This document shows, piece by piece, positions 5,548 through 21,288 of a stretch of DNA of 40,387 nt; the stretch's first letter is position 1; every line of letters starts with the position of its first letter. A model generated the notes under the pieces. It was not told the origin of the DNA. It did no database searches and was given only the letters and a program-made list of their open reading frames with translations. The position numbers and the translations under genes are program-made. Origin of the DNA: an uncultured Planctomycetaceae bacterium. Lineage in GTDB: Bacteria > Planctomycetota > SZUA-567. The stretch lies in contig CAYWTJ010000001.1 in assembly GCA_964460225.1 (NCBI GenBank), positions 1 through 40,387 on the forward strand. The letters are read 5' to 3'.

Positions 5548-5665
5548 ATAGCATTGAATGCCAACGATGGCATAAATCGGCGTCGCACGCGGACGCAGGA
5601 AGAACCGGTGCGGGTTGCTGCTGCCGGATTTTAGTGAAATCAGGGTAACCGTAAGGAGTATGGCA

Positions 5666-6766
5666 ATGGCGTCGTTTGAGATCAAGCCGAAGGGTAGCTG
5701 TCTGTGGGACGAGGTGTCGCTGGGGGAAGTGATGGTCCGGTTTGATCCCGGTCTCAGCCGCGTGCATACCTCCCGTGTCTTCACCGCGTGGGAAGGCGGC
5801 GGCGAGTACAACGTCGCCCGCGGTCTGCGCCGCTGCTTCAACCTCAAGACCGCACACGTCACCGCCATTGTCGACAACGGCGTCGGCCGTCTGCTGGAAG
5901 ACCTCATTCTGCAGGGAGGCGTGGACATGAGCCACGTCAAGTGGGTCGAGTTCGACGGCATTGGCGCAAAAGCCCGCAACGGCCTGAACTTTACCGAGGC
6001 CGGCTTCGGCGTCCGGGGCGCGGTCAGTACCTCCGACCGCGGACACACCGCCGTCAGCCAGCTCAAGCCCGGCGACATCGACTGGGACACCGTTTTCGGT
6101 AAGGAAGGCGCGCGCTGGTTCCACTGCGGCGGCATCTTTGCCGCTCTGGGCAAGCACACCCCCGAGGTCGCAATTGAAGCGATGAAGGCCGCCAAGAAGC
6201 ACGGCACCATCACCAGCTACGACCTCAATTTCCGCGCCAGCCTCTGGAAGGACAACGGCGGCACCAAACGCGCAATGGAGGTCAACCGCGAAATCGCAAA
6301 ATATGTTGACGTCATGCTTGGCAACGAAGAAGACTTCACCAAGGCGCTCGGGTTCCATGTTGAGGGGCTGGACGAGAATTGCGCCCAACTTGATACCAAC
6401 AACTTCAAGAAGATGATTACAATGGCCGTCAAGGAATACCCGAACTTCAAAGCGGTAGCGACCACCCTGCGCGGGGTAAAAAGCGCGACGGTCAACGACT
6501 GGGGCGCGATTCTCTATACCGGCGGACAATTCTACGAGGCCAAGCCGTTCCCGAATCTGGAGATCTTCGACCGCGTCGGCGGCGGCGACTCGTTCGCTTC
6601 AGGGCTGATTTACGGCTTTTTGGCGGACAAGGCTCCGGCGCAAACGATCAACTACGGCTGCGTCCACGGCGCACTGGCGATGACCACGCCCGGAGACACG
6701 ACAATGGTTCGCCTTGCCGAGGTTGAGAAACTGGTTGGTGGCGGCAGTGCCCGCGTAGATCGCTAA
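5666..6766 (+). CDS. PfkB-family carbohydrate kinase (2-dehydro-3-deoxygluconokinase-like)
   Basis: AAGGAG lies 7 nt upstream of ATG 5666. N-terminal GG..N.A motif (EGGGEYNVARGL). C-terminal DRVGGGDSFASGLIYG anion-hole/catalytic motif typical of ribokinase/PfkB kinases. Confidence 0.8.
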   Translation: MASFEIKPKGSCLWDEVSLGEVMVRFDPGLSRVHTSRVFTAWEGGGEYNVARGLRRCFNLKTAHVTAIVDNGVGRLLEDLILQGGVDMSHVKWVEFDGIGAKARNGLNFTEAGFGVRGAVSTSDRGHTAVSQLKPGDIDWDTVFGKEGARWFHCGGIFAALGKHTPEVAIEAMKAAKKHGTITSYDLNFRASLWKDNGGTKRAMEVNREIAKYVDVMLGNEEDFTKALGFHVEGLDENCAQLDTNNFKKMITMAVKEYPNFKAVATTLRGVKSATVNDWGAILYTGGQFYEAKPFPNLEIFDRVGGGDSFASGLIYGFLADKAPAQTINYGCVHGALAMTTPGDTTMVRLAEVEKLVGGGSARVDR

Positions 6767-6797
6767 CGGCGAGCGCAAAACGACCGCAATCCCGATA

Positions 6798-6825
6798 AAA
6801 CCCGCCAGCGATGGCGGGTTTTCCT
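6798..6825 (+). terminator. rho-independent terminator of the kinase gene
   Basis: AAACCCGCCagcgatGGCGGGTTTTcc. A 9-bp GC stem and 6-nt loop with a T-run. Confidence 0.7.
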
Positions 6826-7111
6826 CTTCCAGCACAACAGCTTCCGTATCTTAGCTCGCAAATCCCGGGGGCATCGTTGTCAGCAGAGAGCCCCCTTGCG
6901 CCGGCAGGGCAATCGCATTCAAAACAGGTGGAAAAGCTTTTTGTTGCGAATTCATAACGACTTTCGTCTCGCACTTGCGGCAATGCGATCCGACGTGCTA
7001 CGTTTACATCATGTACAAACTGCGCTACACTCACCCATACCACGAATTCTACTGAGGTTACAGAAGAAAAGCAAGCGCTCTTCATGTTTGTCGTGGATAT
7101 TTAAAAGACGG

Positions 7112-7139
7112 TTGACTTTAATGGGTGGATTGCTACAAT
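7112..7139 (+). promoter_or_regulatory. sigma70-like promoter TTGACT-16-TACAAT upstream of the STAND NTPase gene
   Basis: gTTGACTttaatgggtggattgcTACAATatg lies about 70 nt upstream of ATG 7209. The RBS is AAAGGGAA. Confidence 0.45.
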
Positions 7140-7208
7140 ATGTACTGGCTATTGGGAATAACCACAGTCGCTTGATATACGATATGTATTTGAAGAAAAG
7201 GGAACTGT

Positions 7209-9491
7209 ATGACACCTGATTTCTTTGAAAACGAAGTTCGCAGAATAGCACGTTTGAAGTGGCCTTCTGCTGCAACGTCTGGCGGTGCGGAAATGATTGA
7301 TCGGCGAGAACGTGATGGAATTTTCATTACGGAGGAGTGTGTTCATCTAATTGAATGCACAACATCACAAAAGAAGGAAAAAGCCTCTGAAGACATAAAA
7401 AAGCTTTTCGATCTTTCAAAAAAATATAAAATTTCACATCCAGTACATGCCGTGAAGTGTTGGTTTGTAACAAAGAATGAACCCACTGCGGATCAAAGAG
7501 CGTGTCTAAAAGAGTGGAAGATTCCCGACAATATCGTCAGGGTGCTTTCATTTTCAACACTTCAAGCAACTCTTGTGGATTCAAGGTCATACCTTCAAGG
7601 CAGAATGCTCCATAAATTCGGAAGTGCCACTAATCTAAAGAATCAAACAAATAACTCAAATGAAATAGAATATATCCCTGTTGCACTTAGGATTCAAGAT
7701 GAAGAGTCAGCAAAAACAGTAGCTGAACTTTCTGACTACATTGCAGGTGGAAGACGCTTTGTGTTTCTGGGGGAATATGGTGTAGGGAAAAGCGTGACTC
7801 TTTTCGAAATATTCAAGGTTCTGAAGAACCAGCACGAGCAAGGAAAAACCTCACATTTTCCCATATACATCAATTTACGTGAACATCAGGGGCAAACAGA
7901 GCCAGCTGAGATTATTGAACGGCATGCTCGAAATATCGGATTTGACTCGCCGAGCCAACTAGTCCGAGCATGGAAAGCGGGATATGTAATACTGCTACTT
8001 GATGGCTTCGACGAGGTGTCTTCCGTTGGACTAACGGGCGCATGGAGAAGACTACGAGATGCTAGAATTACCAGTTTGCGAGGGGTTTTTAATCTTGTTG
8101 AAGGGACACCCGCCGAGTGCGGCATTGCCATCGCCGGGCGGGAAAATTTTTTTGATTCGCCCGATGAGCGCAGTAAGGCAATGGGAATTACTCCTCAGTG
8201 GAAAAAAGTCCACTTGGATGGATTCGGCGACGAACAGATACAACAGCTTATGATGGCATTTGATATCAACGTGGAAATTCCCGCTTGGTTTCCATCCCGT
8301 CCGCTTCTTTTAAGTACTCTTTTTGCCTCTATGATTCATTCAGGGGCAGCAATTGATTTTACGCATTTAAATAGTCCAGCACTGGGATGGGATTATTTGC
8401 TAGATAAAATAACGGAACGTGAGGCAAAAATTGAAGCGGGTGTTACTGGAGATAATATTCGCAATATTCTCGAATTATTAGCAACAATTGCAAGGCGAAT
8501 GGAAGGTGGCCTTGGTCCCTTCTCCTCCACGGACATAGTTCATGCATTTGAACGGGTGTGCGGATATACACCTTCAGACCAAGCACTAATTGTTCTGCAG
8601 CGTCTTCCCGGACTTGGGCGGGGTGAAGGTGCTGTGGAAAGTGAACGTACTTTTATTGACAAAGAATTTGCGGATGCCTGTCGTGCCGGTGATGTTGTAA
8701 GATTTTGCATCGATCCATATGGCGATTCTATTGAGCAATTTTCAGGCACTCAAATTCCGCTCGGCGAAATTGGTGCAACTATAGCTGCACATAAGTTATC
8801 TTCAAACGGCTTTAATGCTGGTCAGTTGCTTGCAGCTATTCACGCTTCCGACAAAATTGATGACCCTGGGGTAATTCCATCCGATTTGTTTCATTTGGCA
8901 ACTGAAATGCGAATAGACGTGAAATACTCACTAAATATTCGAAGTGTCTCATATGAACGGATGACAATGGACGCTATCGAAATGGATCTATCAAATTGCC
9001 ATTTTTCTGAGTGTATTATTGAAAATTTGGAGCTGCCACCAGACTTCCCGGTCGGTTTTTGCCCATCTTTTGATGATTGCCTGATTTCAACGGTAATAGG
9101 TCGAACAGGCACAAGCGATATTTCAAATGAGAAGTTTCGAAATTGTGAGATCGGAAAATTTACTGGAAATATAGATACAGTAGATGCGACTATGGCACTT
9201 CCTATTCCGGTTGGAACAAGAGTTGTCCTCACAATATTGCGAAAACTATTCGTTCAGAGTCTCAGTGGAAGAAAGGAAAATGCTCTTTATCGAGGGCTGG
9301 ATTCGGAATCACAGCAATATGTTCCTTCTGCCATTAGTTTACTCTCACAAAAAGGTTTGATCTTTGTGAGCAGCAGGAGCAGTGAACGTATATGGCTACC
9401 GGTTCGAAAAATGCGGGAGCGTGCATTGGCAATTATATCATCCCCATCGACTTCATCGGATAGCGTTATTCTGGAGAGTAAAAAAATGTAG
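7209..9491 (+). CDS. NACHT-type STAND P-loop NTPase with an N-terminal Mrr-like (restriction-endonuclease fold) domain and a C-terminal helical/repeat region. This is an NLR/Avs-like antiphage defence candidate.
   Basis: Walker A FLGEYGVGKSVT. Walker B with the NACHT double-acidic signature VILLLDGFDEV. N-terminal 150 aa FENEVRRIARL..RDGIFITEE..HLIECTTS..KCWFVTKNEPTADQ matches the Mrr catalytic-domain layout (FE..lv, D-G-I, h-h-(E/Q)-C-(K), hhhTT..Ft..A). C-terminus has pentapeptide-like DLSNC HFSEC IIENL repeats. It lies in a markedly AT-richer tract than its flanks. Confidence 0.75.
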   Translation: MTPDFFENEVRRIARLKWPSAATSGGAEMIDRRERDGIFITEECVHLIECTTSQKKEKASEDIKKLFDLSKKYKISHPVHAVKCWFVTKNEPTADQRACLKEWKIPDNIVRVLSFSTLQATLVDSRSYLQGRMLHKFGSATNLKNQTNNSNEIEYIPVALRIQDEESAKTVAELSDYIAGGRRFVFLGEYGVGKSVTLFEIFKVLKNQHEQGKTSHFPIYINLREHQGQTEPAEIIERHARNIGFDSPSQLVRAWKAGYVILLLDGFDEVSSVGLTGAWRRLRDARITSLRGVFNLVEGTPAECGIAIAGRENFFDSPDERSKAMGITPQWKKVHLDGFGDEQIQQLMMAFDINVEIPAWFPSRPLLLSTLFASMIHSGAAIDFTHLNSPALGWDYLLDKITEREAKIEAGVTGDNIRNILELLATIARRMEGGLGPFSSTDIVHAFERVCGYTPSDQALIVLQRLPGLGRGEGAVESERTFIDKEFADACRAGDVVRFCIDPYGDSIEQFSGTQIPLGEIGATIAAHKLSSNGFNAGQLLAAIHASDKIDDPGVIPSDLFHLATEMRIDVKYSLNIRSVSYERMTMDAIEMDLSNCHFSECIIENLELPPDFPVGFCPSFDDCLISTVIGRTGTSDISNEKFRNCEIGKFTGNIDTVDATMALPIPVGTRVVLTILRKLFVQSLSGRKENALYRGLDSESQQYVPSAISLLSQKGLIFVSSRSSERIWLPVRKMRERALAIISSPSTSSDSVILESKKM

Positions 9492-9543
9492 TGCGGGGCT
9501 TGTCTACGTGCATACCGCAATCTGAACTTATGAAGTATTAGAA

Positions 9544-9570
9544 CAAGGGGCCGCATTACGCGGCCCCTTG
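9544..9570. terminator. bidirectional terminator hairpin between convergent genes
   Basis: CAAGGGGCCGCattacGCGGCCCCTTG. A perfect 11-bp stem with a 5-nt loop. Confidence 0.55.
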
Positions 9571-9607
9571 AAGTCTCCTCCCGATCTGGTTGAAGTGATG
9601 GAGCCAG

Positions 9608-10114
9608 TTAAACCGTTTTGCTGGTGTCGAAGCCCAGTTCACTCGCCAACCGCAGGAACTCACGGCGTGTAACCACCTCCCGCCCCATCCCAAACGGCGC
9701 AGGAATTGTTTTGAGTTTGCCCGCAGCAATCCGAGCCTTGACCGAATCCAAGGTTAAATCCAACGCCACGGCAACCATGTCGAGCGTGTAGGATTCAACC
9801 GACCGCAGGGTTCCTTTCGGCAGTTCCCGTGGTTCCCGCATTTCGATTTGCAGAACCCTTTTGACCTCAGAAGGTGGAACATACGCACCCGAAGCAGGAA
9901 CCGAAGCCGAAGTGCTGGCGGGACTGAGCAATTGCAGCCCATAGGATTCAACCGCCCCTACGACAGACAACGGGGCAAGCAGTTCAGCCGCTTCGTCCAG
10001 CGTGTAAACTGCATACTGCCCGTCTCTGCTTGCCGTAACCGTTACCGGCAGGACAAGGGGTTTTCTTCCGCCGACCGCTTTGGGGGAAGAGGTAGAACGT
10101 GTTGCTGTAGCCAT
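9608..10114 (-). CDS. hypothetical protein (mobile-element associated)
   Basis: AAGGAG lies 7 nt upstream of the ATG. No recognisable domain. It is the first gene of the minus-strand phage-like module. Confidence 0.6.
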   Translation of the reverse strand: MATATRSTSSPKAVGGRKPLVLPVTVTASRDGQYAVYTLDEAAELLAPLSVVGAVESYGLQLLSPASTSASVPASGAYVPPSEVKRVLQIEMREPRELPKGTLRSVESYTLDMVAVALDLTLDSVKARIAAGKLKTIPAPFGMGREVVTRREFLRLASELGFDTSKTV

Positions 10115-10253
10115 AGTAGAACTCCTTCTTGTTGTTGCGGCTGGTTGATTTCCAGCCCGCAGGGTGATGAAGAAAAAGGGAGCAGTGAACGATCAAGGAG
10201 AATAACGGGTAGTCAGTCCGCAGTTCATTCGTCCATCGCCCCCAACGATATTG

Positions 10254-11888
10254 TTAAACCGCAGCCGCCCGCATTGCCAGCAAGTTCTGTTCAACCATTT
10301 TTACCGCCTGTTCGTGCTGGGTGATGTTTGCGGATTGGTCGCAGGAAAGAACAGAAATACGGCGAGCATCCAACCAGTTCTTCCGAATCCGGCAGGCTGT
10401 GGTGAAGAAGCCGATATAGCCGGGGAACCATTCAACGCTGAGTTTGGTTCCCTCATTTGTCGTCGCTTTGCCCCGATATGCCGCCCGTAGCGTACTGGTA
10501 GCTTCATCTGCGGTGTAATCTGGTTTGCCTTCGACCTTTTCGCAAGCGGTTTGATATTGCAGCATGAACGGTTCGGCTTCTTCCAGCGTTAAACCGATCT
10601 CCCGCAGGCGGGATGCAAGTTCTTGCCCTGTGCTGATTCTTCCCGCCAGTGAAGCGTCATAAATCGCCCTGCGGGTGTTGTACTCTGGTTCGTCACCAGC
10701 AGTGTTGACCCAGCAAATGACTTCTTCGCCAGTTTGGTCAACCCGCCGTAGCTTCCAGACCTCGCCAAAAGGTGATTCCGGCATAGTTCCTGCTCCGTAA
10801 TTATCAGCACGGGGCGGAAGGTCTTTCTTTGATACGGCTTCATTTGGGTCGCGCTTTGCGCGACCAACCGAAGCGTCCGATTCAGCCGAAGATTTCTTTT
10901 CTGCGTTCCTTGTCCGTGCAGCCTCTATTTCTGTTTTCCGCTTCGCCTCAAGGTAATCAGGAAGTTTCTCCTGCTTCGCCGCTTCGTATTCTTCTTCCAA
11001 CCCCAAAGCCTTCACGATGGCGTTAAACCCGCAGCCTTGGCTCTGGCATTTCATCCAGCAGTCGCCGTTCTCGTAAACCGTGATGGAAAGGCTTGGGTCG
11101 CTGTCATCGTGAGCGGGGCATTGCGCCATATACTTCCCGCCCCCGGCGTGTTTAATCCGCAGCCCCTTCCGGTTCAATGCAGCCTCTACGTCATCCCATT
11201 TCAATCTGGGCATGAGTTTGTACTCCGGGTCGTCAATTCCTGCCCCGGTGCTGGTCATGCTTTCGGTTAGTTCGATCTCGACCGCCTGTTGAATGGCGTT
11301 GGATAAATCAAGGTTTGCCCCGAGTTCATCCCGCCCGTGTTTGATCGCCGCAGAGTAAAGTTCGGAAATATCTTTGTAGGGCGGTTGTTTGATCGCCTTC
11401 ACCTTGCCGGTGTAACCGAGGCTGGTCAAATGCGCTTTCACCCGAGCCGGGAATTCTTTCCCCGCTTTATCGGGTTCTTGCCATACATATACGGCAGGGA
11501 ATTCGGCTACATCCTCCAGCGTCAGGCAATTGGTGTTGCTCGCCCCCGGCAGCCCGAGGCAGGGATAACCCGCCATCCATGCAGCCCAGCAATCGCTTTC
11601 CCCTTCTACGATCAGAAGGGTGTCGGCGCAGGCAGGCCACTCGGCTTTCACTTTGTCGATTATCCAGCGTCCGTATGGTTGGGTGGTTGAATCTTTCTTC
11701 CAGCGGAAGCGGTCATTGCCGGTTAAATTCAAACGGTAGCGGATGGATTCCGTGTTGCCCTCTTTGTCGAGGTAGGGGATTTCAACGGCGGTTTGCCCAT
11801 AGGCAGTTGTGTCGGTCAAACCAAGCGAAGAAAGATAATCCGTGGTGAGGTTTTTGGCTTCCGCCAGTTCAGCAAGTGTACAGCTCAT
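10254..11888 (-). CDS. phage/plasmid-type DNA primase-like protein (Toprim-like acidic motifs plus CHC2 zinc finger)
   Basis: LLIVEGESDCWAA (Toprim-like E-G-x-x-D) and VWQEPDKAG (DxD-like). CHC2 zinc finger CPAHDDSDPSLSI...CWMKCQSQGCGFNAIV (primase zf-CHC2 pattern). AGGAGC RBS. Confidence 0.7.
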   Translation of the reverse strand: MSCTLAELAEAKNLTTDYLSSLGLTDTTAYGQTAVEIPYLDKEGNTESIRYRLNLTGNDRFRWKKDSTTQPYGRWIIDKVKAEWPACADTLLIVEGESDCWAAWMAGYPCLGLPGASNTNCLTLEDVAEFPAVYVWQEPDKAGKEFPARVKAHLTSLGYTGKVKAIKQPPYKDISELYSAAIKHGRDELGANLDLSNAIQQAVEIELTESMTSTGAGIDDPEYKLMPRLKWDDVEAALNRKGLRIKHAGGGKYMAQCPAHDDSDPSLSITVYENGDCWMKCQSQGCGFNAIVKALGLEEEYEAAKQEKLPDYLEAKRKTEIEAARTRNAEKKSSAESDASVGRAKRDPNEAVSKKDLPPRADNYGAGTMPESPFGEVWKLRRVDQTGEEVICWVNTAGDEPEYNTRRAIYDASLAGRISTGQELASRLREIGLTLEEAEPFMLQYQTACEKVEGKPDYTADEATSTLRAAYRGKATTNEGTKLSVEWFPGYIGFFTTACRIRKNWLDARRISVLSCDQSANITQHEQAVKMVEQNLLAMRAAAV

Positions 11889-12143
11889 TTTTTGCTCCTA
11901 TTGTCCCGCATCGGTTGAATGCGGATGAAACGGTTGATCTGGTTTGCGTCCGCTGTCATTAGCGGAAGAAGCGCAAGCGTGATCGTTTTCCGCCTGCCGG
12001 TCTGCTCCAGTTGAACCGCTGGTTTGCAGGGCAGGGTCTTGCCGTTTCATTCACCAATAGGCGCAGTTCGCAAAATGAACCGCTGAGGCGTGAATGGGTG
12101 TTCCAACCTTCCTTTGGAAGGAATGCTTGTTGTTCCTCGGGTG

Positions 12144-12440
12144 TTACTGCTCCCGTTTGATTGCTGCGGAAGCCTCGGTCAGCGCTTCATCGAGGGTTGA
12201 AAAAGTTCCGCCGTGGAACTTGCGTTGCGGTTCTTCGTGAACAAACATCAGGCAGTAATCAAACCCCTCCCGTTTGTCTGCGTCCGTGGTGGGGCGGTGT
12301 TTGAAAACCGTAGCCCAGCCTCCTTTGAATCCTCGCTTTGCCCCTCCTGACTTTGTCGCCTTCCAGCGTTCCCCCATACCGTCAGTCAGCGGTTTTGGGC
12401 GTTCAGCGTTGAATCGCTGAAGATGTTCTAGTGTTCCCAT
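12144..12440 (-). CDS. small hypothetical protein (98 aa), mobile-element associated
   Basis: Internal ATG of track ORF 12144..12644, with AAGGAG 8 nt upstream. No recognisable domain. Confidence 0.45.
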   Translation of the reverse strand: MGTLEHLQRFNAERPKPLTDGMGERWKATKSGGAKRGFKGGWATVFKHRPTTDADKREGFDYCLMFVHEEPQRKFHGGTFSTLDEALTEASAAIKREQ

Positions 12441-12640
12441 GATCAATTTCTCCTTCTTCTGGTGATTACAGTCCTGCCCACATAGCAGGGCGTTGAATTT
12501 TCTTCCGCCTTCTCTTCCCTCCGGCGTTCGGAAGGAGGAGGCAGCGGTTTGTTTTCTGGTTAGCCTCTGTTTGCACTCCTCTTCGGGCTTCCCGTTTGTT
12601 TGCGGCTTCGCCGCGAACAAACAGCCAAGAAAGGAAGCAA

Positions 12641-12844
12641 TCAATCGAACAGTTCGCTTTCTGGTTTGCCCAGCAATGCACTCAGCCGCTGGCGGTTCTT
12701 CTGGCTGACCGCCATCCGCCCGTTAATCAAAGCCGATAGCGTCTGCGGTGCCATGCCCAGAGCCTTGGCAATGTCTGCCCGGCTCCTCATGGTCGCATCA
12801 ATCGCCGAGGCGAGTTTTATGTTCATCAGCCGTTCGATTTTCAT
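12641..12844 (-). CDS. XRE-family helix-turn-helix protein (Cro/CI-like)
   Basis: 67 aa. ...ADIAKALGMAPQTLSALINGRMAVSQKN is an HTH_XRE signature. Its ATG overlaps the upstream recombinase stop (ATGA), which suggests translational coupling. Confidence 0.65.
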   Translation of the reverse strand: MKIERLMNIKLASAIDATMRSRADIAKALGMAPQTLSALINGRMAVSQKNRQRLSALLGKPESELFD

Positions 12845-13551
12845 TTCCTTCCCTCCCGGTTCGTTCCCTCTGTATATGGCATCGCATCCCGGATGATACT
12901 GAACATCATCTGTTGTTGATTCGCCGGGTCGAGCAAGCCCTCGGTTACGCTGTGAACCCGAACCTTGTGTTTGCGAAGAAGCGTGGGAATCCAGTTAATC
13001 AGAACCGAGAGAAATTTCGGTCGGGCAATGCGGGTCATATCCCGGCAAAGAAGAAGATCAACCTCGCCCCCTTCCACCCGCTTGCAGACCTCGCCGAAGC
13101 CGGGGCGGGTCTTCTGCCGCATCTTGGCAATATAGGCTTGCGTTTCTTCGTCAGAATCGAATACTTTCTCATAGCCAGCAGGTGGGCAGCGTCCGGAAAT
13201 TCCTTCATCGGTGAAGGTGCCGACGATCTTGTAGCCGCAGGATTTTGCCAGCCCTTCGCAGGCGGCAATCTGCTCGGATACGGAAAGGGATTGGTCTTCG
13301 CTTTTGCGGTCATCCGATGATTTTCTGGCGTAAATGATCGCTCTGAGGGCTGTTTTTGCCTCTTTCTTCAAGCTTCGGCTGGAAGAAAAAGTTTCGATTG
13401 GGGAAGGGGAAGTTCCGCCGCTCGCGGCGGAACTTAAATCCCGGTTCCTTTTCAATGATTCGGCGGAACTTGAAGGCTGCCCCCTGCTCGAAGAAGTGCT
13501 GGAACTTGCAAGAACGGGTGAAACAGGGGCTGTTTTTGGCTCTTTTCTCAT
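12841..13551 (-). CDS. small serine recombinase (resolvase/invertase catalytic domain) with a Ser/Thr/Pro-rich N-terminal extension
   Basis: RAIIYARKSSDD...SLSVSEQ catalytic serine motif (the YAR.SsddQ pattern of serine recombinases). There is no C-terminal HTH in this ORF; the HTH is supplied by the overlapping downstream ORF. Confidence 0.7.
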   Translation of the reverse strand: MRKEPKTAPVSPVLASSSTSSSRGQPSSSAESLKRNRDLSSAASGGTSPSPIETFSSSRSLKKEAKTALRAIIYARKSSDDRKSEDQSLSVSEQIAACEGLAKSCGYKIVGTFTDEGISGRCPPAGYEKVFDSDEETQAYIAKMRQKTRPGFGEVCKRVEGGEVDLLLCRDMTRIARPKFLSVLINWIPTLLRKHKVRVHSVTEGLLDPANQQQMMFSIIRDAMPYTEGTNREGRK

Positions 13552-13799
13552 CGCTTTTCTCCATGTAACGCTCTGACAATTCGAATGTTAAAGGAGCGTA
13601 GCATATTTTGCAAGTGTTCTCTTGGCGCGGGGTTGGGGCGCGTAGCTCCATGCGGTGAATAGTACTTATAAGCCTAAAATCAAGTTGTTTCCGCCGTTTC
13701 GTGCGGTTGAATTTAATGCGATTCGGCGATAGCGGAAAATGGCTCTGGATGGGCCTGCAAGGTGACGGTGCAGCCGGTCCTATACCTGCGGTACCCAGT

Positions 13800-13840
13800 C
13801 AAAAAAAATCCCCCGCGATACCTGATCGTATTCGGGGGAA
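13800..13840 (-). terminator. rho-independent terminator (minus strand) downstream of the secreted protein gene
   Basis: The plus strand shows A8 followed by TCCCCCGCGATAC-ctga-TCGTATTCGGGGGA. On the minus strand this is a GC hairpin followed by T8. Confidence 0.55.
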
Positions 13841-13872
13841 GGTTGTCATCGCATTCGAAACCGCAGAACCGT

Positions 13873-14574
13873 CTACTTCTTGGCGGTGGTATTTGCTGAT
13901 ATGGTGAACTCGAGCTTGATTTCGGAGAGATCCACCAGATCCTGGCTGTCAAGGCAGATCTGGAAGGCCGTGGCCTTGGGCCGCAGGTCTTTGAAGGAAA
14001 ACCGCATTCCCTCGGCTTTCAGGGTCAGAGACAGGTTGCCCTTGGAAATGGTCAAGGACTTGGCGCTCGCAGGCAATTCCAGTTCCTTGTCGCTCTTTTC
14101 CTCCGGAATTTGAAGTTTTGTTTTCCCATCAACCAGTATGGAACCGCCGGCAAAATCAGCCGAGGCGATGGGGAAGGTGAAAAAGATGCGCTCAAAGGAT
14201 ACCTTGCCCTCGTCCACCGGCGTCAGCAGATAACTGACCGTCATTTCCGTTTCACCACCGCTGTTTTTGGTGATCACTGCCTTTTCCGTCATGTTCATTT
14301 TCGGATTGGTTTTGTACAAAGCAGTGACATTATTGCCTTCGCTCTTGATGTCCGCCAGACAATAGTCCTGAGCCGCCCAGCCGCCATTGGGCTTTAGGAT
14401 AAGGTTATTGGCGCCCCACGTAGCCGTGCTATCGGCCCGCAGCACACCCGGTATTTCCACCAATCCCCGGTTGTCGAGCTTGATCTCTGCGGCACGGAGC
14501 CCCTCCATCATGCCCCCGAAAATCGCACAAAAGGCGATAAACAACATCCCGCTCACACAGACATTGCGATTCAT
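13873..14574 (-). CDS. secreted hypothetical protein (signal peptide)
   Basis: AGGAGA RBS. N-terminus MNRNVCVSGMLFIAFCAIFGG is signal-peptide-like. No recognisable domain. Confidence 0.6.
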   Translation of the reverse strand: MNRNVCVSGMLFIAFCAIFGGMMEGLRAAEIKLDNRGLVEIPGVLRADSTATWGANNLILKPNGGWAAQDYCLADIKSEGNNVTALYKTNPKMNMTEKAVITKNSGGETEMTVSYLLTPVDEGKVSFERIFFTFPIASADFAGGSILVDGKTKLQIPEEKSDKELELPASAKSLTISKGNLSLTLKAEGMRFSFKDLRPKATAFQICLDSQDLVDLSEIKLEFTISANTTAKK

Positions 14575-14780
14575 ACTTTCTCCTGAAATTCCGTGTTTAA
14601 AATTACGCTCTACGAAATATGCCTTTTTATCTCTATAAAACCATATCGCAACAATTGCAATGTTTCATGCGCACGCATCAAGAAGGGTCGCCCGGTTGTT
14701 GACCTGCGCGCCCGTTCTCCCGCGCCGTTTCACCGCAAAACCAGCATCGTGCCCGAATCCGCCCCGCAACCATGATCGGA

Positions 14781-15542
14781 TCATTGCGCATTCCAGTTTC
14801 CGGCGGCATTTTTTCCGGAATTGGGCAACGAGCCGAAGTTACAGCTTACCGCATGACCGTCAAAAAATCCGACATTCAGACGGGCCCCATTGCCGTGGCG
14901 GGGAGGAATGTTGTAGGTCAGCATCCACATCGGCGTGCCCGACCACGTATACAAAACCCGGGCCGCAACGGGTTGATCGCCGCCGCCATCTCCGAGCATA
15001 TCCATCAGCATGAAGGTATTGGCCGGCCGAATGACCTTCCCGACGGGTATGCCGGAACAATTCAGGTTGAACGCAATCGCCATTTTGCAGTTCCCGCGGA
15101 ACCCCGCTTCGCTCATGCTCGCCATGTCCTGCGGCGAAACCCGCGGGCAGGCAAACACGCCCAGAGGATACCGGACACTTACGCCACCGACGCTGACGCT
15201 CTGGGCATAGGATGTGGTGATCGTTTTTCCGGGAAAGTGATAGGGCATCAAATAATTCTGCCAAAAATAGAAGGACTGCATGTTGGTGAAGGTGGTCACC
15301 GGCATCTGCGTAAAATGCGTAATCGCGGGCGGAACCTTATTGTTGTATTCTCCCGAATAAGCCGATTGCATGGTCGCAATTTGCCGGAAATGATTAATGC
15401 ATTGAATGTCCTTGGCGGAACTGGCCGCACGTTGGAGTGCCGGGAGCAGCAACGCCGCCAGAATGGCGATGATCGCGATCACAATTAGCATCTCGATCAG
15501 CGTAAAATGCCTCAGATTTGCCCGGATTCTTTCCATGAGCAT
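14781..15542 (-). CDS. prepilin-type N-terminal cleavage/methylation domain protein with a C-terminal H-X9-DG motif (DUF1559 family)
   Basis: FTLIEMLIVIAIIAILAALLLPAL is the class III signal peptide/N-methylation motif. C-terminal HGNGARLNVGFFDGHA is H-X9-DG. GAGGGGGGG RBS. Confidence 0.85.
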   Translation of the reverse strand: MLMERIRANLRHFTLIEMLIVIAIIAILAALLLPALQRAASSAKDIQCINHFRQIATMQSAYSGEYNNKVPPAITHFTQMPVTTFTNMQSFYFWQNYLMPYHFPGKTITTSYAQSVSVGGVSVRYPLGVFACPRVSPQDMASMSEAGFRGNCKMAIAFNLNCSGIPVGKVIRPANTFMLMDMLGDGGGDQPVAARVLYTWSGTPMWMLTYNIPPRHGNGARLNVGFFDGHAVSCNFGSLPNSGKNAAGNWNAQ

Positions 15543-16000
15543 CGTTTCCCCCCCTCTATCGCGGAAATGAATATGCGCGCCGCCCCTCCCCCCGCCCTAT
15601 GGCGCACAATCCCCTCCCCCGGATATTGTCTCGCGCCAATAACTATACCATCCGAAGTGATGGTATGCAATAATCTACCGAAATATATCTAACATAAACG
15701 GCACCGTCTATCCCGACAGGCGGAGCAGAATCGAGGGGAACCAGTACGCCTTACTTGTTGCTTGAATATTGCGAAACATCAAAACAGGCGTGTCTGTGTT
15801 GCGCCGCCCCCCCCAAAAAAACATGCATTTCGTAGACGGGGCAGCTTCAGAAAAGTGGGGATGTCCGCCGCATCCGCAGACGCCCTATTTCACGTAGATA
15901 TTCCAAATGGAATAGACATCGGCACATAATGGTCGGAAAAACAGGACAGGGTGTACGCTCGATTTGTCGATAAACACTCTGCGACATCAGGAGGAAAATC

Positions 16001-16075
16001 ATGCGTAGCGGTAGTTCTGCGCATAATCTCTCCAGAACGATTCGAATCTTGTCCTCTGCGGAAAAGTGGGAATGA
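16001..16075 (+). CDS. 24-codon leader ORF (MRSGSSAHNLSRTIRILSSAEKWE) translationally coupled to arsC
   Basis: AGGAGGaaaatcATG, the strongest RBS in the region. Its stop TGA overlaps the arsC ATG (gaATGAtg). arsC itself lacks a good RBS. Confidence 0.3.
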   Translation: MRSGSSAHNLSRTIRILSSAEKWE

Positions 16076-16521
16076 TGCAAAAGTATCGGGTTTTGTTCTT
16101 GTGTACCGGGAATTCCTGCCGCAGCCAGATGGCCGAGGGTTGGGCACGGCACCTGAAGGACGATTGCATGGATGCCTACTCGGCCGGGATCGAGACGCAC
16201 GGCCTCAACCCCAACGCTGTGAAGGTCATGGCAGAAGCGGGGGTGGATATCTCCGCGCACAAAAGCAAACTCGTCCGCGATCTTGGGGACATTGCGTTTG
16301 ATGTCGTGGTGACGGTCTGCGGGCACGCCAACGAACACTGTCCGTTCTTTGCAGGTAGGCCGAAGATCGTTCATGTCGGCTTTCAGGACCCGCCGAAGAT
16401 GGCGCTGGAATGCGACACGGAGGAGGAGAAATTGGACTGTTATCGCCGGGTGCGGGATGAAATCCGGGCGTTCATTCTCACGTTGCCGGAGGCCATCATT
16501 CGCTTAAAAGAAAACCTGTAG
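16072..16521 (+). CDS. arsC: arsenate reductase, LMW-PTP (thioredoxin-coupled) type
   Basis: CTGNSCRSQMAEGW is the CX5R P-loop. A downstream Cys pair is present (VCGHANEHCP). Length about 150 aa. Confidence 0.85.
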   Translation: MMQKYRVLFLCTGNSCRSQMAEGWARHLKDDCMDAYSAGIETHGLNPNAVKVMAEAGVDISAHKSKLVRDLGDIAFDVVVTVCGHANEHCPFFAGRPKIVHVGFQDPPKMALECDTEEEKLDCYRRVRDEIRAFILTLPEAIIRLKENL

Positions 16522-16546
16522 GCGGCCCGGAAGATTCCGGGCCGCC
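16521..16546. terminator. bidirectional terminator hairpin between convergent arsC and the thioredoxin-like gene
   Basis: GGCGGCCCGGaagattCCGGGCCGCC. A perfect 10-bp GC stem. Confidence 0.65.
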
Positions 16547-16570
16547 TACAGGTTGCGCAACACAATCCGA

Positions 16571-17047
16571 TTACTTGTTACTCTGAACAAACTTCAGTGT
16601 CTCTTCCTGCACATACTTGAAGAATTCGTCCGGTTGCGAGAGCAACTTCCATGACCGGTCAAGCGGCTGAGCGGCCACGATTTTGCCCTTCACGACCTTC
16701 GCCAGCGCCGGCATCTTCGCCTTTGTCTTCAACTCCGTCAGAAGCGTTGCCTGCTCCGGCTCATCCACATTCACAGAGCGAAAGACCAGTTTTTGGCCCT
16801 TGAGCAATTCAGCGACCGGAGCATTATCGACCGTAATTTCCTTCCCATCCGCTCCCTGCAGCGTTCCGCCTTCAATCGCCGCCTTGGTCAGAGCCTCGAT
16901 CATATTGCAGGACATGCAGCGAAAGGTGGTATGGGGGTAATACACCACGAACTGCTCCGCCGGTGCGCTCTCCGCCGCTCCGGCACTAAAGACAGAAACG
17001 ATCGCCAGAATAAACGCCAGCACGGAACTGCTCAAATTACGCTTCAT
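16571..17047 (-). CDS. secreted thioredoxin-fold-like protein with a CxxC (CMSC) motif, hypothetical
   Basis: Internal ATG with GGAGAG RBS. Signal peptide MKRNLSSSVLAFILAIVSVFSAGAA. VVYYPHTTFRCMSCN has the beta-strand-CxxC-helix arrangement. Confidence 0.5.
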   Translation of the reverse strand: MKRNLSSSVLAFILAIVSVFSAGAAESAPAEQFVVYYPHTTFRCMSCNMIEALTKAAIEGGTLQGADGKEITVDNAPVAELLKGQKLVFRSVNVDEPEQATLLTELKTKAKMPALAKVVKGKIVAAQPLDRSWKLLSQPDEFFKYVQEETLKFVQSNK

Positions 17048-17070
17048 TTGTCTCTCCATAGAAAAGAGGA

Positions 17071-17766
17071 TCAGCTCTTCCAGATCGTATAAAGTCCCGC
17101 AAGAATCACCAATATTCCGCACACCTTTTTCAGCCAGACCGCGCCGCTGGAGCGCTCATTCCAGTGTAGATAATGCTGTACTATTTCGGAAAAAGTCCCG
17201 GCGAAAATAATCACCAGACAATGCCCGACGCCAAATAGCAACGGAAGCAACATTGCATGGAGCAGACTGGAAGGGGCAATTTTAAAAGCTGCGGCCATGA
17301 TCGGCCACAGATAGCCGAAGGTGCATGGCCCAAGTGCAATCCCGAACACCAGGCCCAAAACCAATGCTCCGAGCACTCCGCGCGTCTTTACGCCGCTGAC
17401 ATTCGCGCCCTTGAAGGGGTTGCCGACCACATCAAGAAAGTGTAGACCGACCAGAACAAAAACAACGCCGACAATGTAGCTGCCCCACGGGCCGATGTCC
17501 CCCGCCATGCCGCCCAGAAACGAGGTGATAATTCCGATCAGGGCGATTGTGGCAAGAATTCCGGATGCGAAAACGGTGGACAACCAGCAGGCCCGGCGGG
17601 TACTGAGATCGCCTTGCTCATCAATGTAACCGACGATTAGCGGAATACTCGCCAGATGGCACGGGCTGAGAAGTACGCTGAGGAGGCCCCAGACGAAAGC
17701 GGCGGATAAACCAATCCACCAAACGCCGTCCACCGCCCTGGTCAGACTGGTAAATAATTCGTCCAT
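17071..17766 (-). CDS. CcdA/DsbD-family transmembrane thiol-disulfide electron transporter (cytochrome c biogenesis protein transmembrane region)
   Basis: 6 TM. Conserved Cys in TM1 (LLSPCHLASIPL) and TM4 (LGPCTFGYLWP). Confidence 0.8.
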   Translation of the reverse strand: MDELFTSLTRAVDGVWWIGLSAAFVWGLLSVLLSPCHLASIPLIVGYIDEQGDLSTRRACWLSTVFASGILATIALIGIITSFLGGMAGDIGPWGSYIVGVVFVLVGLHFLDVVGNPFKGANVSGVKTRGVLGALVLGLVFGIALGPCTFGYLWPIMAAAFKIAPSSLLHAMLLPLLFGVGHCLVIIFAGTFSEIVQHYLHWNERSSGAVWLKKVCGILVILAGLYTIWKS

Positions 17767-17784
17767 CTTGTTTCCTTTTTTCGG

Positions 17785-18582
17785 TTAGAACTGATAACCG
17801 AGTTCCGCCCACTTCTTGACGATATCTTCCTCCGGGAAGTAGCCGTTGTTCCGGAACAACTCTTTGCCATTTGGATCGAGAAACACCTGCGTCGGAATCG
17901 TGCTGACCTTGAAGGAATTCGCAATGTCGCCCCTGAGTTCAACATTGTAGAACTCAGCAGAAAGTTTATCCTTGTACTTCGCCTGCAACGCCTGCAGCAC
18001 CGGCTCCATCATCTTGCACGGCACGCAGGTGGTGGAACCGAACTCCAGCATCCGGGGAAGCCGCTTGCCTTCCGCGTTTACGGCGTATTGCTGGAAATCC
18101 TGATTGTTATCCGGTGTCCCCTTTTGAGACTTGAATACCAGCAAGGCGACCACAACAACGGCGACCAGCACCAACACGATGGTTTTTCCGATCTCACTTT
18201 TTTTCTCGCCAGAAGCATCCGAAGCGCCGCCGCAACCGCAGTCTACACGTTCCGCTCTCGACTCAGAAAGACAGCCGCACCCACATTCCTCTTTCGGCGC
18301 TCCAGCAGCACCGGAACACGCCTCGGGAGACTGTCCGCCTTCTTTGGCGGCAGCAAGTAATAAATCCTTGATTTTATCCGGATCAAGCACTCTGCCCGCG
18401 CTTTCCACCCTGCCGTTGATCGCCAAGCCGGGTGTGCTGATGATTCCGAACGCAGAAATATCGCTCAGTTCCGTCACCTTCTCGATCTGGCAATCAAGCC
18501 CGGCCAGACGCGCCGCCACGGCGGTATTCTCGGCAAGCTGTTTGCACTTCGGGCATCCGGTGCCCAAAATCTGTATCAACAT
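17785..18582 (-). CDS. fused double thioredoxin-family protein: N-terminal small redox-active disulfide protein (CPKC), a Cys-rich linker, one TM, and a C-terminal thioredoxin domain (CVPC)
   Basis: MLIQILGTGCPKCKQLAENT...; linker CGCGC...CGCGG; TM IVLVLVAVVVVALLVF; TCVPCKMMEPV. AAGGAGA RBS. 18 nt downstream gap to CcdA. Confidence 0.7.
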   Translation of the reverse strand: MLIQILGTGCPKCKQLAENTAVAARLAGLDCQIEKVTELSDISAFGIISTPGLAINGRVESAGRVLDPDKIKDLLLAAAKEGGQSPEACSGAAGAPKEECGCGCLSESRAERVDCGCGGASDASGEKKSEIGKTIVLVLVAVVVVALLVFKSQKGTPDNNQDFQQYAVNAEGKRLPRMLEFGSTTCVPCKMMEPVLQALQAKYKDKLSAEFYNVELRGDIANSFKVSTIPTQVFLDPNGKELFRNNGYFPEEDIVKKWAELGYQF

Positions 18583-18693
18583 TGTTGTCTCCTTTTCTTG
18601 AATCAATGCGCGCAACAACCAATCCGCTCTGCATATAGGAAATACCCTTCAGCGCCGGAAAAAGAACAACAACCGTCCGCAACTTCCCGCGCA

Positions 18694-19068
18694 TCACGCG
18701 AGAGCCTTTTCAGCTACCGCGCACAACTTGTCGATATTGGTGTCATCCACTGACGTGCTGCCCTTTGCCAAACCGAGGTCGGCGAGCTGAATGTGTTCAA
18801 ACTTTGTGAATCCCGCCTGCTCCAGAGAAGCCTTGACGCAATTGAGCGGACAGCCGTCGATGGCAACAATCTTCTCCGCCGACTCGGTGGTCTTCAAGAT
18901 CCCCGGAACGCGGCCGCCGATTCCGGCGAGGCAGAACATCTTGCCCTTGCCTTCGCGGGTGAGCTTGCGCGCAGCCTGATCCGCCACCGCGCCCACGTCT
19001 GCCGCGCCCGAACAGGCAAAGATCAACTTGACGCCGCCGCCGCAACCGCACCCTGTGTTCTCAGCCAT
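18694..19068 (-). CDS. DGC-domain protein (putative metal-binding, ars-cluster associated)
   Basis: KIVAIDGCPLNCV is the DGC motif. N-terminal CGCGGG and a FACSGAADVG Cys-rich segment. Confidence 0.7.
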   Translation of the reverse strand: MAENTGCGCGGGVKLIFACSGAADVGAVADQAARKLTREGKGKMFCLAGIGGRVPGILKTTESAEKIVAIDGCPLNCVKASLEQAGFTKFEHIQLADLGLAKGSTSVDDTNIDKLCAVAEKALA

Positions 19069-19219
19069 TTTAACTCTCCTTTGAAATAGGGCGAACTCAT
19101 TGTACCACCGCAACGTTCACCAGGTACCAATATTTTGGCTCAAGCGCGTCCGTCCAAGGGAGTTGCTCGTTCCTCCACGCGGACATGGATTGACTCGCCT
19201 TGCAGAGCAGGAAATTCCA

Positions 19220-20764: not shown

Positions 20765-20817
20765 GGCGCTTTTCCTTTGCTTATTGGCAAATTGGCAAAT
20801 ATACGGCTTTAAAAGGA

Positions 20818-20835
20818 ACCGTGCTGGTCAGCACG
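20818..20835. promoter_or_regulatory. perfect palindrome CCGTGCTGgtCAGCACGG between arsR and the permease gene, next to a tandem TTGGCAAA x2
   Basis: Seen in sequence. Could be an intercistronic hairpin/attenuator or a protein-binding site. Confidence 0.3.
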
Positions 20836-20904
20836 GAAGATTGACCGCTTCCTATTTACAGGCCTCTCGGTTCATGACCGTCCGATCAGTGCGCTCAACT
20901 GGCC

Positions 20905-21225
20905 CTAATGATGAATGGCCAACAGCTCGCGGATGTTTTCCGAGATCATGGAGTCCACGCAATCCATAAACTTCAGGACGCAACGCGCTTGCAGTGTATA
21001 AAAAACCATCAAACCGCGCTTTTCATCGCGGATGATCCCGGCCTGCTTCAGCACAGAAAGATGCTTGCTGACCGTAGACTTGTCGGCACCGATCATTTCG
21101 GTCAGTTCGCAAAAACACTTTTCGCCAGTAGCCAAGACACTGACCACCAGAACCCGGCTGGGATGCCCCAGCGCCTTAAATACATTCGCCTTTGCTTCCA
21201 GACGGGCATATTCTTTTCGGTCCAT
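20905..21225 (-). CDS. arsR: ArsR/SmtB-family metalloregulator
   Basis: FKALGHPSRVLVVSVL...CFCELTE...TVSKHLSVLKQAGII is a winged HTH with a Cys pair in helix 3. GAAGGGGGGGG RBS. Internal start of track ORF. Confidence 0.85.
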   Translation of the reverse strand: MDRKEYARLEAKANVFKALGHPSRVLVVSVLATGEKCFCELTEMIGADKSTVSKHLSVLKQAGIIRDEKRGLMVFYTLQARCVLKFMDCVDSMISENIRELLAIHH

Positions 21226-21248
21226 TGCGCCCCCCCCCTTCTCGTGTT

Positions 21249-21288
21249 CGTTTGTTGGCATTATAGCAAACAAACGCGCCTTAGTCAA
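21249..21288 (-). promoter_or_regulatory. arsR operon promoter (TTGACT-17-TATAAT) with an 8-bp inverted repeat CGTTTGTT/AACAAACG flanking the -10. Putative ArsR operator.
   Basis: The minus-strand reading is TTGACTaaggcgcgtttgtttgcTATAATgccaacaaacg, about 30 nt upstream of the arsR ATG. Confidence 0.5.

Follow-up and report, generated by a model that had tools for sequence, protein, structure and literature searches.

A NACHT gene beside serine-integrase remains: a probable composite islet in a planctomycetal contig

Introduction

Does a STAND gene that lies next to genes for a primase-like protein, an XRE-family regulator, and a serine recombinase travel on a phage satellite, or have separate pieces of DNA come to lie together? 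This question is raised by a locus in contig CAYWTJ010000001.1 of an uncultured Planctomycetaceae bacterium. The window analysed here is that one complete contig, 40,387 bp in length, from a metagenome-assembled genome. The gene order listed in an earlier note on this DNA holds: a plus-strand STAND gene of the NACHT type is followed by a minus-strand block (hereafter the module) with genes for a hypothetical protein, the primase-like protein, a small protein, the XRE regulator, and a resolvase-domain open reading frame (ORF). The note had described the locus as a single island with a satellite-like module and a possible defence gene. We arrive at a different reading, to which we assign a probability of roughly 0.6: the locus is a horizontally acquired composite islet of ~6.9 kb, made up of a decayed, probably immobile serine-integrase element and an intact nuclease-NACHT gene, the two being of different origins. 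The left end of the islet would lie at about 6.91/6.97 kb, on the side of a pfkB-family kinase gene, and its right end at about 13.63/13.86 kb, next to a hypothetical gene. The NACHT gene is most likely an independently mobile defence-type gene that lies beside the decayed element or is carried by it.

Composition of the locus

The GC content is 0.59–0.60 over 1–6.8 kb and falls to 0.37–0.45 between ~6.95 and 9.55 kb. To the right of 9.55 kb, it climbs to 0.51–0.58, and then remains at ~0.54–0.55 up to ~21.5 kb. The sharp drop reported earlier at 6.9–9.6 kb is real, but it is confined to a single gene, the NACHT gene. The GC content and the GC content at third codon positions (GC3) of this gene are 0.43 and 0.34, respectively, compared with 0.59 and 0.77 in the flank, and the GC3 values of clearly native genes range from 0.75 to 0.88. 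The module (9551–13800), in contrast, has a GC content of 0.54, against 0.55 at 13.8–21.5 kb, and the GC3 values of its genes (0.55–0.69) are similar to those of the genes on its right side. Sliding-window GC analysis thus picks out the NACHT gene, but the k-mer signatures do not set either piece apart: among size-matched segments of the same contig, the GC-normalised tetranucleotide signature ranked only at the 13th percentile for the module and at the 9th for the NACHT segment. The tetranucleotide correlation between the two pieces is 0.64. We rejected the signature as proof of a foreign module, as it was not significant in comparison with these controls. Compositional distinctness is therefore firm for the NACHT gene only, and the island of 6850–13560 proposed by the earlier note shrinks, in this respect, to that gene.

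The serine recombinase

The coding sequence of the recombinase, as annotated, starts at a TTG codon (Table 1); the in-frame ORF reaches farther, to an ATG at 13551 (236 aa). Its product comprises the catalytic N-terminal domain and only the first turns of helix E. The best sequence matches among solved structures were TnpX and the TP901-1 integrase, with which the YARKSS and DMTRIAR motifs of the window protein (P0105) align. A word-indexed homologue search returned only the protein itself, and an exhaustive HMMER search gave 443 relatives. Among the best 150 of these, most are 500–700 aa long, and the short ones stop at scattered positions. The closest relatives, P0225 (558 aa, 65% identity over residues 2–168), P0226 (502 aa), and P0228 (586 aa), fall among relatives of 500–640 aa, and each of the three contains Resolvase, Recombinase, and Zn_ribbon_recom domains.

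When three full-length relatives were compared with the whole window by tblastn, matches were confined to 13368–12856, with nothing beyond codon ~170. The homology ends at ...IIRDAM inside helix E, and the protein then runs on as PYTEGTNREGRK*; helix E is cut after ~12 residues, which are followed by a proline. No helix-turn-helix (HTH) was found in the polypeptide, the neighbouring HTH being encoded in another frame by the separate XRE gene. Of the features of a large serine recombinase, the catalytic N-terminal domain is present, and PF07508 and the zinc-ribbon/coiled-coil domain PF13408 are not. The features of a small serine recombinase are likewise missing: there is no full helix E with an HTH, and the relatives are not resolvases or invertases of ~180–220 aa. 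Because the relatives are full-length and the homology stops inside helix E, the "small resolvase" of the earlier note is a large serine recombinase of which the first ~165 codons are left.

Large serine recombinases contact the entire 25-bp att half-site through their recombinase (RD) and zinc-ribbon (ZD) domains (PMC3783163). Because the stump has no DNA-binding domain and has lost most of helix E, the element can most likely no longer excise or integrate by itself. The doubt about mobility that the earlier note had voiced is resolved in this direction, with the integrase cut at codon ~165. As a caution for annotation in general, the presence of a 176-aa "resolvase" beside an XRE gene is uninformative on mobility, since what looks like a resolvase can be what is left of a large serine integrase.

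The full-length relatives all lie on contigs of 1.8–5.5 kb, from which an intact element could not be reconstructed. Scans with the recombinase found one distant locus in metagenomes and none in 2.9 million viral contigs. Two of the relatives, on contigs L088 (1771–1835) and L090 (1831–1888), carry a nearly identical sequence just 3' of their stop codons (AATCTTGAACCATCACAAACC...CCCTGCCTATGTCAATGGCAGGG), and both share only ~40% identity with the window recombinase. It could be a site belonging to the element family, or else a terminator that has been conserved.

The XRE gene and the joint at nt ~12881

The ATG of the XRE gene overlaps the stop codon of the recombinase (ATGA). This arrangement can be compared with L093, a 1,112-bp contig from an unrelated metagenome sample, which aligns (1–1112) with window positions 11780–12881. 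It encodes an XRE protein with 92.5% aa and ~94% nt identity to that of the window, a 100-aa homologue of the small orphan protein h99 (50% aa identity), and the first 41 codons of the primase-like protein (100% aa, 97% nt identity). The near-identity sets in where the recombinase homology stops, at window nt 12881, 36–38 nt ahead of the XRE start codon. Upstream of this point, L093 consists of DNA that is unrelated to the window and shows no clear recombinase homology. Because the near-identity to L093 starts exactly at the end of the recombinase homology, the junction between the stump and the XRE gene is identified, at the sequence level, as a deletion or recombination joint.

The open frame at the 5' end of L093 was tried as a recombinase homologue. 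Only 3–4 of 24 informative residues match, and the family-invariant Gly and Asp are absent; the homology is unproven.

The similarity between the window and L093 is mosaic, at 94–97% nt identity for the XRE gene and the primase 5' end and 50% aa identity for the small ORF between them. The pattern indicates recombination among diverged relatives, and the XRE, h99, and primase genes form a mosaic unit that also occurs elsewhere.

The primase-like protein and h168

The 544-aa primase-like protein consists of a Toprim-type domain (residues 1–190) with EGESD and EPD motifs, a CHC2 zinc finger (235–297; CPAHDD...PSLS), and an orphan C-terminus of ~250 aa. The Pfam model Zn_ribbon_DnaG gave 17 bits, below its cutoff of 24.9, and PADLOC found only weak matches to primase-like models associated with defence-associated reverse transcriptases (DRT; RTasDnaG-like, 2e-08). 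The primase domain is 35–45% identical to metagenomic primase/helicases and, more distantly, 25–33% identical to those of phages. In all 48 homologues with both domains, the finger precedes the Toprim domain, the reverse of the order in the window protein; a further 46 homologues have no finger and pass straight from Toprim to helicase. Residues beyond 320 matched nothing in the homologues, and no P-loop or helicase was detected in the protein. The protein could be a chimera produced by rearrangement, or its architecture could be new.

Homologues of the primase-like protein reside in small elements. One of these, L081/L082, encodes a serine recombinase of 523 aa and has a PDDEXK gene as well as XRE genes. 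In L083, the homologue has an HTH_17 gene at its side, directly beside housekeeping genes.

At the downstream end of the module, the orphan protein h168 contains an internal duplication of ~51 codons at a spacing of 153 nt, with the motif YTLDEAAELL/YTLDMVAVAL occurring twice. A family scan gave only a faint winged-HTH match (E 0.15). By eye, the C-terminal copy resembles an excisionase/MerR-type HTH, with no significant family model.

Taken together, the sequence supports the assignment of the minus-strand block to mobile-element DNA, because it contains a serine recombinase, an XRE gene, and a primase domain of the phage or mobile-element type, has a copy in L093, and has primase homologues near large serine recombinases. 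The module operates in the manner of a large-serine-recombinase-type integrative element and descends from one, but without the DNA-binding domains of the recombinase. Of the earlier suggestion of a satellite or integrative element, the mobile-element part is borne out on these grounds; the satellite part requires separate consideration.

The phage-satellite question

The core set of phage-inducible chromosomal islands (PICIs) comprises an integrase, a regulator, a primase-replicase, capsid morphogenesis genes, and terS (PMC10085698). The module has the first three in name, with the integrase truncated and the primase devoid of its helicase/replicase part. Genes for hijacking (terS, capsid morphogenesis, Sid/Psu/Delta, portal, packaging) were absent from the ORFs of 6.6–14.6 kb searched with Pfam, PHROGs, and NCBIfam. 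The authors of SatelliteFinder do not accept three-gene clusters of integrase, regulator, and primase as satellites, noting that these may be defective or unrelated elements (PMC10085698). The comparison of the primase and the recombinase with viral sequences, which the earlier note had proposed as a check, yielded no relatives of either in the 2.9 million contigs of IMG/VR. Additionally, a plasmid DNA search with the module gave no match. The sequence thus lends no support to a recognisable phage satellite.

An active phage satellite or integrative element with the STAND gene as cargo, excised by the serine recombinase, replicated by the primase, and transferred by a helper phage, would explain why integrase-type, XRE, and primase-like genes form an operon-like block that looks like the left half of a PICI-type satellite (PMC10085698). 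Defence genes are a frequent satellite cargo (PMC10085698), and satellites of the PLE (PICI-like element) type use large serine recombinases. Furthermore, a copy of the recombinase leader lies beyond the NACHT gene, which would place this gene within element-derived DNA, and a 14-bp direct repeat encloses the whole block. This scenario is nevertheless quite improbable: the recombinase is left without any DNA-binding domain, the primase is rearranged and has no helicase, packaging and hijacking genes as well as relatives in viral contigs are missing, and the composition of the NACHT gene is strongly unlike that of the module, its closest homologues being solitary.

The NACHT protein

The protein has a restriction-endonuclease (REase) fold at residues ~1–135, followed by the NACHT module, a helical region, β-strand repeats at ~575–652, and a C-terminal winged-helix-like region. 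The Walker A (GEYGVGKS, 188–195) and Walker B (DGFDE, 265–269) motifs are invariant in 30 homologues. A sequence-level search found no relative in the Protein Data Bank (PDB) for the protein, nor any match for its nuclease domain. An AlphaFold model of the full protein, built on the 30 homologues (predicted local distance difference test score, pLDDT, 84), gave NLRC4, NOD2, NLRP9, and NAIP5 as the top PDB matches in Foldseek (probability 1.00), as well as NLRP3. Residues 1–140, modelled separately (pLDDT 83), form the α-β-β-β-α-β core of the restriction-endonuclease fold, and the top matches of this model were all PD-(D/E)xK nucleases: Nt.BspD6I, Cdn1, Card1, Can2, Avs4, Avs3, and NucS. D36, H46, E49, and K58 are invariant. 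The models fit the bacterial REase-NACHT class, which is related to the nucleotide-binding leucine-rich repeat (NLR) proteins.

Phage defence and nuclease-dependent toxicity have been shown for the REase-NACHT protein bNACHT25 (preprint 10.1101/2022.07.19.500537). By analogy with such systems, the window protein is probably an intact putative anti-phage sensor-effector. Following bNACHT25 and Avs, its C-terminal region would sense a phage or infection cue, upon which the NACHT module would oligomerise in a nucleotide-dependent manner. Oligomerisation would switch on the N-terminal PD-(D/E)xK-type nuclease, whose degradation of DNA would abort the infection.

A promoter-like site precedes the gene (7112–7139), matching the σ70 consensus at 10 of 12 positions with an extended −10 element. 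Homologues are numerous: more than 820 full-length proteins (~755–770 aa) align end to end at 40–57% identity, and they occur in Planctomycetota, Verrucomicrobiota, Gammaproteobacteria, Leptospirales, and Chloroflexota. Both of the nearest homologues stand alone. That of L084 forms a low-GC islet by itself (0.51 vs 0.65), flanked by GAF/HD and HisF-like genes and without mobile-element genes in the vicinity; that of L086 has IS110 and rve genes next to it. Non-coding flanks conserved across these loci were sought, and none is common to them.

Phages carry relatives as well. A homologue in the cultured Pseudomonas phage Haddon (PQ571161, 13749–16049; L096), with 39% identity over 96%, lies among excisionase-annotated genes, and at least 9 IMG/VR contigs (L097–L105) contain full-length relatives. 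The viral relatives are 26–40% identical, are labelled hypothetical proteins, and are often located near contig ends. The horizontal spread, the solitary low-GC islets, and the carriage on temperate-type phage and IMG/VR contigs are indirect evidence that would be consistent, by analogy, with a role in protection against phages.

A STAND gene of defence-type architecture thus adjoins the mobile-element block, as the earlier note had stated. Its further suggestion that the element carries the defence gene is unproven: the composition of the NACHT gene is unlike that of the module, the nearest homologues are solitary, and the gene has its own promoter-like site and terminator. With more than 820 REase-NACHT proteins, several of them on phages, and no match in PADLOC 2.0, the family is a reasonable candidate for experiments.

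Island ends and the motif array

No tRNA gene lies at the junction, as noted previously; the sole RNA gene of the window is tRNA-Arg(TCT) at 440–516, and an Rfam scan of the window detected only this tRNA. At both ends of the islet, we found copies of a recombinase leader, inverted with respect to each other so that they bracket the island. On the left, 6975–7019 matches the region upstream of P0225, the closest full-length recombinase, at 37 of 45 positions (L088 nt 1–45; score 50, shuffle maximum 26). Positions 7016–7072 on the plus strand align with 13610–13553 on the minus strand (score 29, reached by 0 of 300 shuffles). The AT-rich NACHT cassette begins where the left leader ends (7072/7073), and no recombinase gene follows the left copy. 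A remnant of a recombinase coding start in 7061–7208 was rejected, since its score was reached by 22 of 300 shuffles. Two further candidates were discarded: a divergent small gene opposite the leader block, as most differences between the L088 and window sequences would alter the encoded amino acid whichever frame is read, and a strong dyad symmetry of the block, in which inspection showed that only the ACGT core is palindromic.

Within the leader block, L088 nt 5–31 is identical at 27 of 27 positions to nt 1241–1267 of the IMG/VR contig L092, inside a phage tail-sheath gene (Phage_sheath_1C). The left leader of the window has most of this stretch, and a pattern of 21 fixed bases found one match in 2.9 million contigs. 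The stretch may be an attB-like target of the recombinase clade, or a coincidence.

The leaders bear on two other explanations. If the NACHT gene had been ordinary cargo of a single element before its decay, the leader copies would be the element ends or the ends of a head-to-head pair. The NACHT cassette does lie between the inverted leaders and within the 14-bp repeats, with AT-rich DNA starting exactly at the left leader end, and the related L081/L082 element combines a large serine recombinase with uncharacterised large genes and a PDDEXK gene. We nonetheless regard a single origin as unlikely in view of the GC3 values (0.34 for the NACHT gene against 0.55–0.69 for the module) and the tetranucleotide correlation of 0.64; moreover, the nearest NACHT homologues have no such neighbours, and L093 is too short to show cargo. 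The other explanation is a misjoin of an AT-rich segment into the metagenome-assembled contig, which the abrupt GC steps might suggest in a window that is the whole contig. It is scarcely plausible, as both GC steps are intergenic and coincide with signals that make sense there (promoter-like site, shared terminator), the island's right end is tied by leader homology to the junction on the left, and the homologous gene of L084 is a single-gene low-GC islet of the same type in an unrelated genome.

The earlier note had found no att repeats by eye, and the window indeed contains no long att-type repeat. A weak 14-bp direct repeat, ATCGCATTC[A/G]AAAC, does, however, bracket the island; the right copy lies just outside the 13.55–13.85 kb range in which the earlier note had proposed to search for a counterpart to 6.85–7.2 kb. 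The two copies are 13/14 identical and are the only matches to the pattern in the window; in a local alignment, the two outer flanks of the island gave a score that 2 of 300 shuffles attained. Removal of the DNA between them would leave the pfkB-family gene and h233 convergent on the hairpin at 6797–6824. We propose the repeats tentatively as the island boundary.

At the start of the recombinase gene, the first 25 nt are doubled (13527–13551 and 13347–13371), in frame and 180 nt apart. Of the two, it is the upstream copy that aligns with the beginning of the closest full-length relative, and its Shine-Dalgarno sequence is the better one. The TTG start may be secondary, and the intervening Ser-rich 60 codons may be inserted non-coding DNA. 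The 155-nt stretch between the two copies contains an array of the motif AAGTTCCGCCG, which has four exact copies in the 40-kb window, all inside the module. If one mismatch is allowed, the count rises to seven, compared with an expectation of 1.23 (0 of 100 shuffles). A 36-nt phasing links three of the copies (array 13410–13507), and one pair forms a perfect 12+2+12 palindrome at 13410–13435. The stretch is probably a putative protein-binding region (operator, res-like, or ori-like). Tandem Repeats Finder reported no 36-nt array, and we rejected its interpretation as a tandem repeat. A further palindrome, AAGTTCC-N5-GGAACTT, occurs at 12203–12221 within h99.

We also considered a split system, in which the catalytic domain of the stump and the HTH of the XRE protein would act on the AAGTTCCGCCG array, functioning as a resolvase or invertase on the inverted leaders. 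The leaders (6975–7072, 13553–13610) would then be recombination or docking sites, and defence cassettes such as the NACHT gene could be captured, inverted, or exchanged. The intact catalytic residues, the overlap of the recombinase stop with the XRE start, the inverted repeats of ~57–100 nt flanking a 6.6-kb segment, and the highly non-random array directly upstream of the annotated start, with its 26-bp hix-like 12+2+12 palindrome, would suit such a system. It is very improbable all the same. Small serine recombinases need helix E for dimerisation and catalysis, and here it is cut after ~12 residues and followed by a proline. The joint at the XRE leader looks accidental, since in L093 the leader is preceded by unrelated sequence without clear recombinase homology. 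Moreover, the short relatives break off at varying positions, which is what one would expect of fragments, and no homologue has this architecture.

If the locus hides anything new, it would be in the inverted leaders, the doubled start, and the motif array, and in no other feature. Should intact relatives come to light, these recombination scars could aid in pinning down which sequences serve a rare clade of serine integrases as att or regulatory sites.

Origin of the islet

The evidence leads back to the composite islet that we favour, which would consist of two pieces. The first (about 7.07–9.57 kb) would be an AT-rich single-gene NACHT cassette with its own promoter-like site and terminator. 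The second (9.6–13.63 kb) would be the remnant of a large-serine-recombinase-type integrative element. A deletion or illegitimate joint at nt ~12881 would have taken ~390 integrase codons, and with them the recombinase domain, the zinc ribbon, and the coiled coil, leaving the stump fused to the XRE leader. For replication, this piece would carry the gene of a rearranged Toprim/zinc-finger protein without a helicase, and the inverted leaders, the doubled integrase start, and the AAGTTCCGCCG array would be scars or regulatory sites of the element family. The sequence itself shows the composition, the domain content, the truncation, the joint, the doubled leaders, and the spread of the families; the defence function with its mechanism, the immobility, and the succession of events are inferred from these.

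Several points weigh against this reading. The composition of the module is not significantly atypical, and no empty site was found: when 185,579 species genomes were searched for the pfkB-family kinase, 589 relatives came up (best, 71% identity), none of whose genomes shares another gene of the window. No empty site was recovered because the searched collections hold no close relative of the genome, and because an empty-site comparison was not possible, the acquisition of the module is argued from its gene content and L093. The reading does not account for the inverted leader at the exact start of the AT-rich cassette. The stump retains all family-invariant catalytic residues and an open frame, and may have residual recombinase activity. 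In addition, the open frame of L093 runs into the same C-terminal 12 residues (...PYTEGTNREGRK*), so that there may be a conserved short ORF upstream of the XRE gene. For the NACHT protein, the nuclease-fold matches are weak in E value (4e-3 to 9e-2), though their probabilities are 0.84–1.00, PADLOC 2.0 assigned no family at E ≤ 0.01, and the defence role is proposed by analogy only.

Flanks and coordinates

The contig genes point to a chromosome, and to an anaerobe. They include NfeD/flotillin, HydF, the pfkB-family kinase, [FeFe]-hydrogenases, and a NuoF-like subunit, as well as a Mur ligase and a hybrid histidine kinase. To the left of the islet, the hairpin that follows the pfkB-family gene is flanked by an A-run and, on its opposite side, by a T-run, and could work as a terminator in both directions. 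The right flank (13873–21351) looks native; its GC content of ~0.55 is below that of the rest of the contig (0.59–0.63), and its tetranucleotide signature is host-like. It contains genes for a prepilin-type N-methyl protein (14781–15542) and an ArsF-like protein, and an ArsR/ArsP_1 permease/DGC/double-thioredoxin/DsbD cluster. The features of the locus are collected in Table 1.

Table 1. Positions of the features of the islet and its borders in the window.
Feature	Position (nt)	Strand	Evidence or remark
pfkB-family kinase gene	5615–6766		Pfam PfkB 1e-20; native left flank
Hairpin terminator 3' of pfkB-family kinase gene	6797–6824	strand-neutral	sequence read
14-bp direct repeat ATCGCATTC[A/G]AAAC, left copy	6912–6925	+	candidate outer end, tentative
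Recombinase-leader copy, left, inverted	6975–7072	+	promoter-like TTTACA-17-TACACT hexamers and 5' untranslated region (UTR)
σ70-like promoter of NACHT gene	7112–7139	+	TTGACT, 16-nt spacer, TG-extended TACAAT; consensus match only
STAND NTPase (NACHT) gene, 760 aa	7209–9491	+	Pfam NACHT PF05729 8e-08, above cutoff
GC-rich hairpin between convergent NACHT and h168 genes	9545–9569	strand-neutral	GC step here
h168, orphan protein	9608–10114	−	translation; representative of a singleton cluster
Primase-like protein, 544 aa	10254–11888	−	PHROG primase families, 1e-16 to 1e-11
h99, small orphan ORF	12144–12443	−	translation; 50% aa identity to L093 homologue
XRE-family HTH regulator, 67 aa	12641–12844	−	HTH_3 9e-09
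XRE leader and ribosome-binding site	12842–12881	−	upstream end 12881/12882 is the joint
Truncated large serine recombinase	12841–13371	−	Resolvase domain PF00239 4e-16; 176 aa, TTG start at 13371
155-nt stretch between 25-nt start copies	13372–13526	−	AAGTTCCGCCG array; repeat and motif counts
Recombinase-leader copy, right	13553–13610	−	5' UTR, GGAG Shine-Dalgarno before ATG at 13551; three-way alignment
Terminator-like hairpin and T-run after h233	13801–13838	−	inside candidate direct-repeat boundary
14-bp direct repeat, right copy	13848–13861	+	candidate outer end, tentative
h233	13873–14574	−	gene right of island

Comparison with known systems

The NACHT protein resembles the bNACHT25 type (Kibby et al.) in its N-terminal REase fold, NACHT module, and C-terminal sensor region. 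As in that type, the gene is a single unit that is horizontally mobile and, in some cases, borne by phages. It differs in the C-terminal region (helical, with short β-strand repeats and a winged-helix-like part), which belongs to no recognised repeat class, and in that the window protein matches no PADLOC model. The primase-like protein shares its Toprim-type domain and CHC2 finger with DnaG-type primases and phage or plasmid primase-helicases, but in the window protein the finger follows the Toprim domain (as in 0 of 48 homologues) and an orphan 250-aa tail replaces the helicase.

Satellites (PICI, capsid-forming PICI (cfPICI), P4-like, and PLE) are similar to the locus in their small block of integrase-type, regulator, and primase-like genes with a defence-type gene adjacent. 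The locus differs from them in the lack of hijacking genes, the truncated integrase, the missing helicase/replicase domain, and the lack of relatives on viral contigs.

The closest likeness of the stump is to the catalytic domain of recombinases from large-serine-recombinase elements (phiC31, Bxb1, TP901-1, A118, TnpX of Tn4451, CcrAB, and the PLE integrase). The pairing of a replication gene with a recombinase recalls the staphylococcal cassette chromosome (SCC) elements. The recombinase gene is situated at one end of the element and reads inward, as in L089, where it begins 52 nt after a host ABC-transporter gene. In contrast to these elements, the stump holds only ~165 of ~560 codons, without the recombinase domain, zinc ribbon, and coiled coil, and the window has a second, inverted leader copy with no gene behind it. 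The reach of the finding is limited to one more NLR-like defence-type gene within the wreck of a mobile element, and both parts are of known kinds, in an ordinary islet.

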